DNA of 40,747 nucleotides from Candidatus Undinarchaeota archaeon (GTDB taxonomy: Archaea > SpSt-1190 > JASMDC01), in contig CAZFHY010000026.1 of NCBI GenBank assembly GCA_964519305.1, positions 1 to 40,747 on the forward strand. The letters are read 5' to 3'. The translations under genes were made by a program, and so were the position numbers. Position 1 is the stretch's first letter. Every line of letters starts with the position of its first letter. The notes below the pieces were generated by a model. The model had not been told where the DNA came from, did not search any database, and was given only the letters and a program-made list of their open reading frames with translations. Below, one piece after another: positions 91 through 5,170 of the stretch.

Positions 91-196
91 CTACAGACGG
101 GGGGCACGCAGGTGCCCTCCGGTATCTGATGTCGAGGATTTGGGTCTCACGTTGTTGAAAGGGGGGTGGTCTCGACTCGCTCCTCGACGGGATGAT
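91..196. ncRNA. Structured non-coding element, copy A (hairpins; homologous to 1424-1571)
   Basis: Hairpin CGGGGGGCAC/GTGCCCTCCG (98-121); stem GTCGAGG 131-137 / CCTCGAC 182-188; 16-mer GGGGGGTGGTCTCGAC at 161-176, identical to 1517-1532. Confidence 0.5.
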
Positions 197-735
197 CATA
201 TCTGTTCGTAGGTGACCTCCTTATCAGTGTGATGCACTCCGTCGCGCATCTCGAACGTGGAGACCACGTTCTGCTTGTAGCTCTCGCCCAACCGCTCGAT
301 CGTCGCGGTCGCATGGCGGTGGCCCTTGAACGACTGGACGGGGTGACGCCAGTCAGCGATGAACGCGTTCTTCTCTGGCAGGCCGTAGCCGAAGTCCGCC
401 AGCTCTTCGATGACGCTGTCCATGGCCTCGCGCCTTCCGGTCATGGAGAGGGTGTACCCCTTCTCCTCAGTGTGAACGAACGCCGTGCCGGGGTTCGGGC
501 TCGCACTTGATTCCTTATGGTCGTAGGGCGTGACCTCATAGTCGAGGACGTCGTCCATGTTGCTCCATCCGACTGAGACGACCGCACAGGCCATGTCGGT
601 CTCGAGGTCCTCCCCGCGCTGGGGGTAGGTAGTGCGCTCCTCGAAGGAGTGCCTGAACGCCGTCGTGACCGTCGAAGTCACATCAGTGAGGTAGGTGAGC
701 TTCATGCACACCTGGTCAGTATCCATGTCGTACAT
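196..735 (-). CDS. Hypothetical protein, paralogue 1 of 3
   Basis: 179 aa ORF sharing KLTYLT, EEKGYTLSMTG, GYGLPE.NA and DW.HP with the two upstream ORFs; GGAGTGA RBS. Confidence 0.85.
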   Translation of the reverse strand: MYDMDTDQVCMKLTYLTDVTSTVTTAFRHSFEERTTYPQRGEDLETDMACAVVSVGWSNMDDVLDYEVTPYDHKESSASPNPGTAFVHTEEKGYTLSMTGRREAMDSVIEELADFGYGLPEKNAFIADWRHPVQSFKGHRHATATIERLGESYKQNVVSTFEMRDGVHHTDKEVTYEQI

Positions 736-741
736 AGATGC

Positions 742-1311
742 TCACTCCTGGGCCTTGGATAGCGGGACCCTGTCCTGCGCGAACGTGACCTCACGCCTGA
801 AGGTAACCCATTCAGGGGTGGATTCACGGGTGGACCTCTCCTGAGGCAGGTAGAAGTCGGTCAGCGACTCGATCGTGTTGGCCGCGTGCCTAGTGCCCTT
901 GACCGACCTGATCGGGTGGTTCCAGTCGGCCACCCAGGCGTTGCGCTCTGGCAGACCGTAACCTGAGTCGCCCAGCTCAGTGATCACGTCATCGATCGCC
1001 TCTTTGGTACCCGCCATGGTGAGGGTGTAGCCCTTCTCTTCCTTGGAGGCGAGCATGCTGGTGGGTGCCATGCCCATGGGCAGGCTGGAGGACTCGTAGG
1101 GGGTGACCGTATATGTAAAGCCAGGATCGACTTCCTCGGCTACGAGGTCGCCAGCCCATCGCATGCAGTTCTCGAGCCCATCTACACGTTCGGAGTAGAC
1201 AGTGATGTCCCTTATGTTCTGGGGGGAGGGGAAACCGCTCATGGTGGTCCTGTCGACCTCGGTAAGGTAGGTGAGCTTCACGCACACCTGTTCTGTGTCT
1301 GTTTCGTACAT
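742..1311 (-). CDS. Hypothetical protein, paralogue 2 of 3
   Basis: Same motifs; start placed at ATG 1311 (MYETD) by paralogue alignment and GGTGA RBS; BRE/TATA AAAGGTTTATTA at about 1370-1381 (minus). Confidence 0.85.
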   Translation of the reverse strand: MYETDTEQVCVKLTYLTEVDRTTMSGFPSPQNIRDITVYSERVDGLENCMRWAGDLVAEEVDPGFTYTVTPYESSSLPMGMAPTSMLASKEEKGYTLTMAGTKEAIDDVITELGDSGYGLPERNAWVADWNHPIRSVKGTRHAANTIESLTDFYLPQERSTRESTPEWVTFRREVTFAQDRVPLSKAQE

Positions 1312-1423
1312 GTTCATCACCTTGTGCCGTGCTTTTGTTTCGACACACGGCCTCAGGTTTCGGCGTCCCTAATAAACCTTTCTTTTGGTGCACCTAAATA
1401 TAGCAATTCAGGGATGTTCGTGA

Positions 1424-1571
1424 AGGGTCCCCTGTGTACGGTGTGGGCCTATACAGAATATGATCGCGAGGGGCCCGTAGGCCCCTCGCATGAAGTCGAG
1501 GTGCGCGATCTCGTCCGGGGGGTGGTCTCGACGTGCCCCTCGACCCTATGATGTGTCGTTGAGCGGATCCT
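1424..1571. ncRNA. Structured non-coding element, copy B (multi-hairpin)
   Basis: P1 AGGGTCC 1424-1430 / GGATCCT 1565-1571; P2 CTGTGTA/TATACAG; P3 perfect 10-bp stem 1466-1489; P4 GTCGAGG 1495-1501 / CCTCGAC 1538-1544; TAAATATA at 1395-1402. Confidence 0.55.
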
Positions 1572-2117
1572 CTAGGCCCGCTCGAACGTTATCTCGACGG
1601 TGGTCGTCTCCTTCTCGGGGGTGGAACCCTCGGTCCGGTTGAACGTCCGCTGGTAGCTCTCTTCGAGCGACCCGATCCGTTCCTTGGCCGCGTAGTGGCC
1701 CTTGACGGACTGTATGGGATGGGTCCACTCGGCCAGGAGGGCGTTCCTCTCGGGCGTACCGAAGTCGGCGTCAGCGAGCTCTACGAGCACTAGGTCGATC
1801 TGGTCCTTGGTACCGGTCATGGAGAGGGTGTAGCCCTTCTCCTCAACGTCCATCCAGGCGGGCGCTGGCCAGGGGCCAGCGTAATGGCTCTTCTCCTGGT
1901 GGGGGGTGATCTCGTAGGAGAGATTGCCGCCCATGGCGTTGTTGGCGAACTCGCATGCGGCCTCCATGGTCTCGGGGAAGCCCTCGCCGCGTTGGGGGTA
2001 GCTCGTGAGGATCTCGTTCTCCTTGAGCCATCCGCCGGTGAAGCCGTGCTGCTCCACTCCGGTGAGGTAGGTCAATTCGACGCTTACAAGCTCCTTGTCA
2101 CAGTCGATGTCGTACAT
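1572..2117 (-). CDS. Hypothetical protein, paralogue 3 of 3
   Basis: 181 aa with the same conserved motifs; GGTGA RBS; TTTATAA box at about 2160-2166 (minus). Confidence 0.85.
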   Translation of the reverse strand: MYDIDCDKELVSVELTYLTGVEQHGFTGGWLKENEILTSYPQRGEGFPETMEAACEFANNAMGGNLSYEITPHQEKSHYAGPWPAPAWMDVEEKGYTLSMTGTKDQIDLVLVELADADFGTPERNALLAEWTHPIQSVKGHYAAKERIGSLEESYQRTFNRTEGSTPEKETTTVEITFERA

Positions 2118-2206
2118 GATTGGTCACCAGTTGTGGGTACGGCTGCGCTGGTGACCGCGTTATAAACGTTCCCCGGGGTGTGTGTCGTGGTGGCAGGGGG
2201 CTGGGC

Positions 2207-3118
2207 CTAGCTCAATTCTCCCCGTACCAGCCGCGCTGCGGCCACCAGGTTCCGTAGTTTGGCGTCCGCCGCCTCCCGGGGGAGCTTCTTCAGCCCGCAG
2301 TCCGGGTCAGGCACCACCCGCTCTGGCCCCAGCAGCTCGCACGCCCTGCGGATGAGCGCGGCCACCTCGTCCACCGTCTCCACCCGGACGTCGTCGGACC
2401 TGACGCATCCCAGCCCGATGCGCTGGGACAATCCCGTGTCGGCCACAGCGTCCAAAAGCTGCGGATCTGCGGCGAACTCGAGGTCCAGCACCGCGACGGG
2501 CATCCGGGCCAGCGAGTCGAGAACAGGGACCACCTTCCCGCAAACGTGGAGCGTCACGGGCACCTCGAGCCCACGCACCACTTCGGTAACGAGCTCTTGA
2601 GCGTACGGTGGCAGGTCCACGGAGAAGAATGGTTCGTCCACCTGGACAGCAGGAGCTCCGGCGGCCTCGAGCGCGAGCACCTCGGCGTTGAGCGCACGGG
2701 CCAGAGCGAAGGCCGCATCCTCCTCCCTGTCATAATACGCGTTCACGCACCCGCGGGCCAGAGTGTAGGGGCCGGTGACGATGCCCTTCACGGCCGCACG
2801 TCCTGCGGCCACCTCGTGTGCACGGACCAGGTCGTCGGTGGTGATGGGCCGTCGGAACGACACGTCACCGAAGATCACAGGCCGGCCTTTCATCCGGATG
2901 CCCCCGAGACGGGACGCGAACAGCGGAACGATGCCCGCCCGGGTCTGACCGTCCGAGATGATGTCGACGCCGGCGGCCAACTGGGCCTCCACCGCCCGCT
3001 CCAGCGAGAGCAGGTACGGATCACGTCCCGCACGATTTGCGGACACGCACTCAGCGTTCGTGGGGTGGACCGGGTACGAACCCACTACTGTGGTAGGAAG
3101 GAGCTCGGGCACGGTCAC
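2207..3118 (-). CDS. Core (short, single-barrel) zinc methionine synthase, MetE-C/MesA type
   Basis: TTVVGSYP start, DIISDGQ, VQVDEP, Zn ligands HVCG and PDCG; GTG start overlaps the upstream TGA; about 303 aa. Confidence 0.9.
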   Translation of the reverse strand: MTVPELLPTTVVGSYPVHPTNAECVSANRAGRDPYLLSLERAVEAQLAAGVDIISDGQTRAGIVPLFASRLGGIRMKGRPVIFGDVSFRRPITTDDLVRAHEVAAGRAAVKGIVTGPYTLARGCVNAYYDREEDAAFALARALNAEVLALEAAGAPAVQVDEPFFSVDLPPYAQELVTEVVRGLEVPVTLHVCGKVVPVLDSLARMPVAVLDLEFAADPQLLDAVADTGLSQRIGLGCVRSDDVRVETVDEVAALIRRACELLGPERVVPDPDCGLKKLPREAADAKLRNLVAAARLVRGELS

Positions 3119-4044
3119 GGCAGCCGCCTCGCGGGGTGGTCGTCGGGCACGGCCACGCCGAAGTAGTCCTCTGCGCCCTCGGCCACCATCCGGGCGGCGA
3201 AGGCCACCGGCGGGTACACCCGGGGCACGTTCTCGACCCTCCCGGTGAGCACCAGGTCGGCGCCCCAGGATACCGGTAGTGCAGCGGCGGCCGCGTCGGC
3301 GGCGTCGAAGTCCGCCGGACGTCCTTTGCGCCAGCCGCGCATCCATCCCCAGGCGTGGAGCGTGTTGTGGAGCGCGCAACCGACAGGGAGGCCGAACCGG
3401 CTCTTGAACACCGGGATGGCGCGAAGGCACTCGGCAGCGCCAGTACCGAAGGGCGTGGCGCTCGTGTCGAGCAGCACACGGTCGATGCCCGCGTCCCCGG
3501 CGATGGCCAGTAGTCCCGTGTCCAGGAGCTTGGCCCCGTCCTCGAGGATGGCCAGCCTGCCGTCAGTGGAGGGGTCGGCGGGATTGTAGGCGAGCACGAT
3601 GGCCGCCGCGGGCGTGTTGGACACCAGCGCCTCCCGCTCCTCCTTTGTGATGCCTATGTTCACCGAGTTGTAGATAGTGCGGTCCAGCAGTCCCGCCTTC
3701 CCCAGGTGCTCGAGCACCGCTGGGCGCAGTGCGGGATCAGGGATATCGACACAGAAGGGCGCGTCGGGAGGTAGCACCTCGCTCACCACCTCGATCCGCT
3801 CCGGTAGCGTGGCAAGGTCACGGACCGCCAAGTCGGGCAGGAACGGTACCCCGGTCACCTGGGCCAACGTCAGTGCGCTCTCGAGCGCCTCCAACGCAGC
3901 GGTACGGGCACCGTCATCCATGGTCCAGTACTGCTTGCCTACGAACGCCGTGGCGACCAGTACCGGCGGCCGCTCCCCTGGCTGACCCCCGAGCTCCAGG
4001 TCGCCCACGCGCACCCGCTGCTGCTCGGTGGTGAAGCCGATCAT
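3115..4044 (-). CDS. mtrH: MtrH-family methyl-pterin methyltransferase
   Basis: GGQPGERPPVL, IYNSVN, LLDT, KSRFGLPVGCALHN, GADLVL motifs; ATGA overlap with mtrA. Confidence 0.88.
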   Translation of the reverse strand: MIGFTTEQQRVRVGDLELGGQPGERPPVLVATAFVGKQYWTMDDGARTAALEALESALTLAQVTGVPFLPDLAVRDLATLPERIEVVSEVLPPDAPFCVDIPDPALRPAVLEHLGKAGLLDRTIYNSVNIGITKEEREALVSNTPAAAIVLAYNPADPSTDGRLAILEDGAKLLDTGLLAIAGDAGIDRVLLDTSATPFGTGAAECLRAIPVFKSRFGLPVGCALHNTLHAWGWMRGWRKGRPADFDAADAAAAALPVSWGADLVLTGRVENVPRVYPPVAFAARMVAEGAEDYFGVAVPDDHPARRLP

Positions 4045-4625
4045 CCGTTCACCTCCGCTGGACGTACCTCGCCGTACGGATCGACGGTGACGGTTGCGTG
4101 CACACCCACAGCCCCGGCCATCCCCGAGTGGTCGGTGGCGTGCCGCACACGCTCCACGGTGAACGGAGCGTCCATAGGGCCGGGATCCCTGGTCCTGCAA
4201 TCCTCCAGCGTCCGGCGCAGTACGGCCGGGTCGTTCCCGCCGAGCAGGTCGATGACCTCCACTTGCCGACAGAACCGTTCGATAGCATCGTCGGCGATGT
4301 TCTCGATATAGGGCACGGCTCCCGGTGCACCGATGATCCGGCGCCGCTTGTCAAGACCGTTGCGTACAAGCGCCAGTAGCGATGCGCCCGACAAGTGGCC
4401 GTGCACGTCAGCACCGAAGAGGACCACGAAGCGCAGCCGGGGGTTGGAGAGGACGTTGGCGATCAGCGTCTCGATCCCGATGTTCTCCGTGCGCAGGGGG
4501 CCCCACACCGCAACCAGGTCCGCGGGGACCTCAACATGTCCGCCCATGGTGACGACGACCGCTGGCGACGATGGTTCACCGCGATTGATCTCGCCACCCC
4601 AGGGGTAAAGCCCGTCCTCGGCCAC
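4041..4625 (-). CDS. mtrA: MtrA-family corrinoid protein, soluble (no C-terminal TM anchor)
   Basis: TENIGIE.LIANVLSNPRLRF, corrinoid His in VHGHLSG, IIGAPGAVPYIEN; GTG start at 4625. Confidence 0.9.
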   Translation of the reverse strand: MAEDGLYPWGGEINRGEPSSPAVVVTMGGHVEVPADLVAVWGPLRTENIGIETLIANVLSNPRLRFVVLFGADVHGHLSGASLLALVRNGLDKRRRIIGAPGAVPYIENIADDAIERFCRQVEVIDLLGGNDPAVLRRTLEDCRTRDPGPMDAPFTVERVRHATDHSGMAGAVGVHATVTVDPYGEVRPAEVNG

Positions 4626-4732
4626 GTGAGAGCGATGGCAACACAGCTTTTTAGCTATTGCGCGGACCGCGCCGCCCGACACCCTTATAATATTGAGCGT
4701 ATGTAAGGATGGGGTAGAAAGGAGAGCGTTAA

Positions 4733-5170
4733 ATGGACGTGGACGGGTACGAATATCCAGCAGACCTCCATTACTCACAGGACCATGTATGGGTCCGGAC
4801 GGAGGGGGGGCGCGTAAGGATAGGGTTCACCGGTTTCGCCCAGGACATCGCCGGCGGCCTGCACTACGTGCGGGTGTTCCCCGCGGGGAAGCGGGTCGAG
4901 GCGGGTCGCGCTCTGGGTACCGTCGAGACGGGCAAGTGGGTCGGCCCCGTGGTCGCTCCCGTGTCCGGAACGGTGGTCGAGCCCAACGAGCGCCTGGCCA
5001 GCGAGCCAGGTCTTGTGAACAGCGATCCATTCGGCGATGGGTGGTTCGCCCTCGTGGCCCCTGACGATATCGATAATGGTCTCAGTGGGCTCGTACGGGG
5101 TGACGACCCGTCCTTCGCAGGTTGGATGAAAGAACGTATGAACGCCACCAGGGGGGAGGCACGCACATGA
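4733..5170 (+). CDS. gcvH: Glycine cleavage H / lipoyl-carrier protein
   Basis: HYSQDHVW, IGFT.FAQ, lipoyl Lys in VETGKWVG, APVSG, N.DPFGDGW. Confidence 0.88.
   Translation: MDVDGYEYPADLHYSQDHVWVRTEGGRVRIGFTGFAQDIAGGLHYVRVFPAGKRVEAGRALGTVETGKWVGPVVAPVSGTVVEPNERLASEPGLVNSDPFGDGWFALVAPDDIDNGLSGLVRGDDPSFAGWMKERMNATRGEART

Follow-up and report, generated by a model that had tools for sequence, protein, structure and literature searches.

Sequence conservation and predicted pairing of a 3'-flanking element behind paralogous genes of an uncultured archaeon

Archaeal selenocysteine insertion sequence (SECIS) elements are structured and conserved stem-loops in the untranslated region at the 3' end (3'-UTR) of a specific set of genes. 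Conserved, structured, and sequence-invariant 3'-UTR elements are poorly catalogued in archaea, and almost nothing is known of the signals for termination and 3' ends in uncultured archaea that are GC-rich. In the usual description, termination in archaea depends on oligo-T and aCPSF1. In the GC-rich archaeon Haloferax volcanii, a hairpin alone, located upstream of a 3' end, terminated 59% of reporter transcripts, and the GC-rich stem-loops are found shortly past the gene and before the next unit (PMC7237163). The window analyzed here is contig CAZFHY010000026.1 of Candidatus Undinarchaeota archaeon (40,747 nucleotides), which is contig C26 of a 3.63-Mb archaeal genome with a GC content of 59.6% (G000); all coordinates refer to this window. 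It contains two copies, A and B, of a structured element that is located at the ends of two transcription units formed by three paralogous minus-strand genes (g1, g2, and g3). A third, orthologous copy (B') is found behind the g3 orthologue (93% protein identity) of the same-genus sister genome G001 (locus L011), and a g3 orthologue of the same identity is likewise followed by the element in two metagenome contigs (L035 and L036) and in a contig of a public metagenome-assembled genome (L023).

Copies A and B were delimited with a covariance model built from three sequences (A, B, and the orthologue). Copy A spans positions 88-198 of the minus strand, begins at the g1 stop codon, and is matched with 80.8 bits; copy B spans positions 1457-1554 of the minus strand, begins 18 nt after the g3 stop codon, and is matched with 111.7 bits. 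Every copy behind a g3 orthologue at L011, L035, L036, and L023 is matched with 113.3 bits. In the sense of the genes, the element consists of AUCAU, 3 nt, GUCGAGG, 5 nt, the 16-mer GUCGAGACCACCCCCC, a spacer of 15 nt in B and 23 nt in A, CCUCGAC, a short linker, and a 10-bp GC hairpin. The corresponding blocks on the + strand are GTCGAGG (131-137 in A and 1495-1501 in B), the core GGGGGGTGGTCTCGAC (161-176 and 1517-1532), which is exact in both copies, CCTCGAC (182-188 and 1538-1544), and ATGAT (192-196 and 1548-1552). Stem P1 of B (1495-1544, minus strand) is formed by the pairing of gene-sense GUCGAGG at 1538-1544 with CCUCGAC at 1495-1501 and encloses the 16-mer at 1517-1532. In P1 of A (131-188, minus strand) the segment 182-188 pairs with 131-137 and encloses the 16-mer at 161-176. 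Hairpin P2 of B (1466-1489, minus strand) contains 10 Watson-Crick pairs and the gene-sense loop UACG, and P2 of A (98-121, minus strand) contains 9 Watson-Crick pairs, one A.C apposition in the gene sense that is a G.U pair on the + strand, and the loop CUGC. A homologous element past the last stop of each unit, with its blocks in this order, had been proposed in the first-pass annotation, and the exact shared blocks in both copies confirm it. Two further helices proposed there were not retained. The 5' arm of a CTGTG/TACAG stem falls, in A, inside a G/C homopolymer (1-80) that is not reproduced by the end of C15, another contig of G000, and the orthologue in L011 and L036 forms 4 bp only. 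The arms of a 5'/3' helix closing B are located in a nonconserved linker, which measures 21 nt from stop codon to element in B and is unalignable with the 31 nt of the orthologue.

The similarity of A and B is not a product of chance. The two copies give a local alignment score of 42, compared with 16.4 +/- 2.6 (maximum of 33) for dinucleotide shuffles, which reached at least 42 in 0 of 2000 cases; unrelated 3' flanks of other paralogues score 12-21 by the same local alignment. The pair was also detected as repeat family D7, with 83% identity over 36 nt in direct orientation and a separation of 1.3 kb. The full pattern appears twice in the forward and not once in the reverse orientation of the 3.63-Mb genome, and the reversed control gave no match.

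Conservation of the element was compared with that of four-fold synonymous sites. Between the paralogues these sites are identical at 15 of 40, 21 of 39, and 19 of 39 positions, which is the chance level (0.386 expected from base composition), and neutral similarity has therefore been erased. A and B agree at 60 of the 98 positions aligned by the model, a level equal to that of the coding DNA of g1 and g3 (311 of 519), and a Fisher test of the element against the four-fold sites (15 of 40) gives p = 0.014. For B and the orthologous copy the identity is 90 of 98 positions, compared with 58 of 80 for the four-fold sites in g3 (p = 0.001). Over the 91 nt of the core from UCAU to AUCAU, a hand count gives 4 substitutions and 1 indel between these two copies (p = 2.7e-5), and the adjoining stop-to-element linker can no longer be aligned. 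Since the element is conserved above the synonymous sites next to an unalignable linker, it is a real and constrained feature. The sequences indicate a joint duplication of the gene with its 3' element, after which the element was retained by selection. The co-duplication had been suggested in the first-pass annotation, and the homology of the copies, the saturated synonymous sites, and the conserved orthologous copy all agree with it. The locus offers a small, testable example, in which selection has preserved two copies from a duplication so old that synonymous sites are saturated.

Base pairing was taken from the covariance-model alignment, in which the hairpin of A no longer shows the one-column offset that distorted the RNAalifold result for the raw alignment. 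Four pairs of P2 are changed on both sides between A and B with the pairing kept (10 pairs in B and B'; 9 and the mismatch in A), and the hairpin has thus been maintained by compensatory changes. The P1 arms and the 16-mer are invariant, and the sole change in P1 is that of CCUCGAC to CCUCGGC in the orthologue, which keeps a U.G pair in the gene sense and gives a C.A mismatch on the + strand. In B and B', P1 is lengthened by two extra G.U pairs that form in the gene sense only. The fold energies of the two copies are -48.6 and -65.7 kcal/mol for the + strand and -34.4 and -59.0 kcal/mol for the gene-sense strand, with z-scores against shuffles of -2.45 and -2.00, and of -2.62 and -2.80, respectively. 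These energies and z-scores do not discriminate between the strands. The earlier statement that wobble pairs do not decide the strand also holds, strand-specific pairs being present on both strands.

All three copies are located between the stop codon of a family gene and the next same-strand promoter, which is that of g2-g1 after B and that of glnA after A and B'. From the contig sequences, the order in G000 is reconstructed as g3 - B - [promoter, g2, g1, A] - glnA promoter - glnA and that in the sister genome as g3 - B' - glnA promoter - glnA. The glnA gene that follows the element in G001 has a 97%-identical orthologue in G000 at C15:105729-106955, and the start codon of this orthologue is 199 nt from the contig end. 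The C15 end (L074 2727-2926) shows an overlap with the 3' half of A (about 12 mismatches), beyond which it carries the sequence upstream of glnA as in L036. The assembly therefore breaks just after A, and the G/C homopolymer runs at the contig start (1-80), which lie outside the element, are probably an assembly artifact. G000 contains three glutamine-synthetase-like genes (on C15, C28, and C14); the one beside A shares 97% identity with the sister copy, and the remaining two share 35% with it.

G000 has the unit [promoter, g2, g1, A], which L011, L035, and L036 lack at the same place. Short C-runs at the junctions suggest a simple deletion or insertion of this unit. The left junction is near 1410/1411, ~55 nt beyond P2 of B, so recombination within the element did not produce the indel. 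An integron-type attC site was ruled out, the junction being outside the core. The TATA-like box at 1395-1402 had been assigned to the + strand in the first-pass annotation. It is located inside the indel, 9 nt from the junction, and has no counterpart at A or B'. Its minus-strand sequence is TATATTTA, and on that strand, upstream of g2, it would most simply be a promoter element of that gene.

The element is proposed, with about an even chance of being right, to be a cis-acting part of the 3'-UTR of the g3 and g2-g1 mRNAs that would act on the gene-sense strand and would have been inherited with the duplication of a gene plus its 3' flank. Its role would most probably be in 3'-end formation, in stability, or in insulation from the next promoter, with a putative factor reading the 16-mer. 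No T-run precedes the element, so RNA polymerase would pass the stop codon and transcribe into it. The nascent RNA would then fold P1, by which the invariant 16-mer could be displayed to a trans factor, and also the GC-rich P2, behind which there is a moderately U-rich tail. P1 and P2 would jointly define and protect the 3' end of the mRNA and limit transcription reading on into the next same-strand promoter. The promoters shielded in this manner would be that of g2-g1 after B and that of glnA after A and after the copy in the sister genome.

The P2 part of this model is made plausible by hairpin termination in Haloferax volcanii, where the hairpins resemble P2 in being GC-rich stem-loops located shortly past a gene and before the next unit (PMC7237163). 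The present element differs from them in having, in addition, an invariant 16-mer and a second, sequence-invariant stem in two genomic copies. Compared with the archaeal SECIS, the element is similarly structured, conserved, and placed in the 3'-UTR of specific genes. It differs in that no in-frame UGA occurs in the three open reading frames (ORFs) and in that an Rfam search to E = 1 gives only a chance-level match to a small RNA (sRNA).

Several observations weigh against this 3'-UTR assignment. A U-tract, taken as 5 or more T in a stretch of 8 nt that begins 0-2 nt past the stem, was not found, and the terminator scan called nothing at 88-198 or 1457-1554 on either strand. No T run of at least 5 follows P2 directly, where the tails read UCUGUAGUCA, GAUCAUAUU, and CAUCAUCUU, and the nearest T5 is located ~50-70 nt further (C15 end and L036). 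The invariant 16-mer is not needed by a plain terminator. The one noncanonical position in P2 of A, A.C in the gene sense, is a G.U pair on the + strand, which is also the only strand on which one extension pair of P1 of A forms. Only two independent lineages are available (A, and B with B'), and the covariation therefore has no statistical weight. Since the stems of P1 never vary, recognition at the DNA level or of a specific sequence fits them equally well. The assignment of the element to the gene-sense strand is itself inferred, as are its transcription, the existence of the factor, and any influence on termination or stability.

The element shares with a bacterial-type intrinsic terminator a GC-rich stem-loop at the unit end (the 10-bp P2) and a tail that is U-richer than a 60% GC genome predicts. 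It differs by having no 5 U within 8 nt of the stem and by the negative scan at both copies. Perfect 9-bp GC-rich hairpins number 154 genome-wide (strand-specific), and 45 of them are located at most 150 nt downstream of a long ORF compared with ~14% expected, in a crude count that is based on uncurated ORFs.

In a search of G000, G001, and 19 relatives, the covariance model found only the three sequences from which it was built (two in G000 and one in G001), and the best other match has E = 0.1. A 21-base pattern detected 16 loci among genome contigs; L023 is the only real copy (113.3 bits), and the other 15 score at most 19.1 bits. Viral contigs scanned with the 16-mer gave 8 loci, all at most 14.5 bits by the covariance model, and no copy. 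The model did not detect the element beside any of the other 14 family matches in G000, nor was it found in the 3' flanks of five paralogues that are not directly followed by another family gene; two of the other paralogues' 3' flanks have an ordinary hairpin followed by a T-rich run. The covariance-model and flank results show that the element is not a general companion of the protein family and is confined to this locus. The first-pass annotation had asked whether the element always stands beside homologues, and it does so at 2 of 17 family match sites in G000 and 1 of 12 in the sister genome. The Rfam search proposed there was made with Rfam 15 on both strands of positions 1-2300 to E = 1 and returned no family at its gathering score; the only match was RF01783 (b55), with 23 bits compared with a gathering score of 70 (E = 0.59).

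Further known classes were compared with the element. A miniature inverted-repeat transposable element or other dispersed repeat was ruled out, with 2 pattern copies in the genome and none better than E = 0.1 in the other 19 genomes. A C/D box sRNA would have a 5' C box (RUGAUGA) and a 3' D box (CUGA) around guide sequences in a k-turn; here UGA-containing + strand motifs flank P1, there is no conserved 3' CUGA, the GA spacing is unlike a 3-nt k-turn bulge, and no C/D family of Rfam was matched in positions 1-2300. No conserved small ORF or stop read-through frame is shared by the copies, in which the frames differ, and no relic of a family gene was found in four flanks when the family profile was compared with six-frame translations (best E = 2.2). 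The k-mers of the 16-mer occur at the chance rate in the genome (17 other sites compared with 21.7 expected in all), and no complementary trans partner elsewhere in the genome rises above chance. The gene-sense 16-mer (161-176 and 1517-1532) resembles the 3' end of the 16S rRNA of this genome (on C14), with U replaced by C. The + strand complement of the 16-mer has a strong Shine-Dalgarno look, with no conserved start codon behind it and no target attached.

The family profile gave 17 matches in G000, 12 in G001, and none in the other 15 genomes of the phylum, and a search of 39 other relatives with g3 detected no family member. Ten proteins pass E = 0.001 among 1.84 billion representatives, and one of these is a repetitive 1145-aa chance match. 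The family thus appears as an orphan that is seen in one genus only (~1.8 billion representative proteins searched). When metagenomes were scanned with the protein alignment, 2 loci were obtained, each of the sister-genome form, and no relatives were found in viral contigs. Sequence searches of the family against Pfam, NCBIfam, PHROGs, and the PDB gave nothing at threshold, and the best score in the ESM Atlas (0.77) is below the lead level. No shared gene context recurs at 13 other paralogue loci (40 neighboring ORFs), where the neighbors include a prenyltransferase, glycosyltransferases, an amidohydrolase, RNase PH, and a radical SAM protein. In a single case an ORF with RHS repeats (E = 5.8e-07; L049:81-1385, G000:C16) adjoins one paralogue in divergent orientation. 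A second tandem array of three paralogues is located at G000:C2:114419-115969 and is kept in G001:C30; it is flanked by an undecaprenyl-diphosphate-synthase-like gene and a PMT_2 glycosyltransferase-like gene. Besides this orphan family of 17 matches, the locus draws attention to an unusually large genome of 3.6 Mb: G000 and G001 measure 3.6-3.8 Mb compared with 0.6-1.2 Mb for the other 15 genomes of the phylum, which makes them striking size outliers or their placement doubtful.

The AlphaFold2 model of g3 has a mean predicted local distance difference test score (pLDDT) of 84.4, a predicted TM-score (pTM) of 0.78, and the order beta-beta-alpha-beta-beta-alpha-beta-alpha-beta-beta. Within it, a ferredoxin-like core (beta-alpha-beta-beta-alpha-beta) is predicted from E33-39, H47-61, E67-79, E88-103, H104-119, and E124-126. 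The best match of a structural search of 48,161 chains is 6dzs_A (Z of 5.8, root-mean-square deviation (rmsd) of 3.6, 86 aligned residues), the next ones extend down to Z of ~5, and the other top neighbors are ACT-type, acylphosphatase, NikR, ribosomal S6-type, and designed ferredoxin folds. Values of Z of 5-5.8, which are below 8, may reflect only a common arrangement. The family resembles ACT-like domains in its core topology, the beta-alpha-beta-beta-alpha-beta order of ACT being present in the model, and in its neighbors, which include the C-terminal ACT-type domain of homoserine dehydrogenase (6dzs_A, Z of 5.8), NikR (2ca9_A, Z of 5.1), and acylphosphatases. It differs in an extra N-terminal strand, a C-terminal alpha-beta-beta unit, and the absence of a profile match at threshold; from the ACT clan of Pfam only ALS_ss_C was obtained, in 1 of 16 members (E = 0.1, 13.1 bits compared with a cutoff of 23.2).

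A ferredoxin/RRM-like RNA-binding fold had been suggested for these proteins. The ferredoxin-like core is supported by the model, and the RNA-binding part is not supported. All 16 aligned members are acidic, with isoelectric points (pI) of 4.42-4.77 and net charges of -13 to -24 (crude proteome median pI of 5.5), so RNA binding is not favored. No RRM or other RNA-binding family was matched at threshold in Pfam or NCBIfam, and the structural matches are generic ferredoxin-like folds with Z of at most 5.8. PADLOC gave a weak Cas6 match in 1 of 16 members (E = 0.0066, 13.7 bits, 59 residues), and the top Foldseek matches are RAMP chains of Cascade with TM of 0.2-0.3 and rmsd of 14-24. A RAMP/Cas6 identity is considered doubtful, as no Cascade chain appeared among the best 50 matches of the second structural search.

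The invariance of the P1 arms and the 16-mer, in which there is no covariation, would equally suit a DNA site. Direct GTCGAG repeats 12 bp apart and an inverted CTCGAC could constitute an operator or upstream activating site for the next same-strand promoter, and the GC hairpin would then be a separate 3'-end hairpin. Each copy is located upstream of a same-strand TATA-like box, at roughly 65-140 nt by our own count, and one copy precedes the conserved glnA promoter region in both genomes. Known archaeal operators are usually nearer to the promoter than this, which weighs against such a site. GTCGAG-N6-GTCGAG is not enriched in the genome (12 compared with 12 for the reversed control), and there is therefore no regulon of such sites; the one-arm change in the orthologue keeps RNA pairing, and the compensatory changes in P2 point to a folded strand. 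A DNA site is considered unlikely, though it is the likeliest of the alternatives. The folded strand could also be the + strand, as an independent small RNA that would be transcribed convergently to g3 and g1, in antisense to their 3' ends, and would act on those mRNAs or on ribosomes; its GGGGGGUGGUC is Shine-Dalgarno-like. The G.U pair in P2 of A and one P1 extension pair of A exist on that strand only, its folds are more stable in absolute terms (by the energies given above), and the complement of the 16-mer could, in our own reading, pair with the 16S 3' end GGAUCACCUCCU of this genome. The z-scores are no better than those of the other strand, however, the change in the orthologue breaks P1 on the + strand, and no promoter is conserved there, as the 1395-1402 box is part of the indel unit and has no equivalent at A or B'. 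With no start codon conserved behind the Shine-Dalgarno-like run and no Rfam family matched (only b55, at 23 of the 70 bits), such an RNA is judged improbable. A lack of any function is the least credible, and is given very little probability: the similarity would then be a leftover of the duplication or would have been refreshed by a short gene-conversion tract, as two copies per genome in direct orientation only 1.3 kb apart would favor. The synonymous sites of the flanking genes are saturated, the conserved blocks are parted by spacers that differ in length and sequence (15 and 23 nt), unlike a conversion tract, and conservation of the orthologous copy exceeds that of synonymous sites.

The first-pass annotation had favored a protein-noncoding RNA system, in which the family proteins would bind the element in their own 3'-UTR (autoregulation) as one co-duplicated protein-RNA unit. 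Gene and element were evidently duplicated together and both kept, the ferredoxin-like core is a fold common to many RNA binders, and two GUCGAG repeats could, as read from the sequence, compete for one CCUCGAC and so act as a switch. This proposal is nevertheless regarded as a long shot. The element is present at only two local sites and one orthologous site compared with 17 and 12 family matches, the proteins are very acidic in 16 of 16 aligned members, no RNA-binding family was matched, no + strand promoter is conserved, and the RAMP/Cas6 lead lost its support at the second structural search. A new RNA-protein system is not revealed on present evidence. A dedicated 3'-UTR RNA switch, in which the choice between the competing GUCGAG repeats would be set by a factor on the 16-mer, possibly the ACT-like proteins in a metabolite-bound form, is similarly doubtful. 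If real, it would determine if transcription, or the decay of the mRNA, comes to a stop ahead of the following unit, glutamine synthetase included, and such a protein-controlled switch of 3' ends or read-through is not known from archaea.

The genes g1, g2, and g3 are minus-strand paralogues with pairwise identities of 40-44%, two of them being 43-44% identical to the first. Gene g1 (196-735) encodes 179 aa, is identical to P0003, and is located 6 nt downstream of g2 (742-1311; 189 aa, identical to P0004), which leads the unit; with a gap of 6 nt, the two form one unit. Gene g3 (1572-2117), whose product of 181 aa is a member of the orphan acidic ferredoxin-like family, has a transcription unit of its own. 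Its putative promoter contains the TATA-like box TTTATAA (2160-2166, minus strand), ~45 nt upstream of the ATG and kept in L011, and the Shine-Dalgarno sequence GGTGA is located between this box and the ATG. Upstream of g2, the minus-strand TATA-like boxes TTTATTA (1370-1376) and TATATTTA (1395-1402), both inside the indel unit, would serve as promoter elements. The ORFs, the gap between g2 and g1, and the TATA-like box and Shine-Dalgarno sequence of g3 uphold the original description of three paralogues of 179-189 aa in two units. In-frame UGA occurs in 0 of the 3 ORFs. Upstream of g3 (2207-4778, minus strand), a methyltransferase cluster is formed by Meth_synt_2 (MetE-like), MtrH-like, and MtrA-like genes, and its order is kept in L011.

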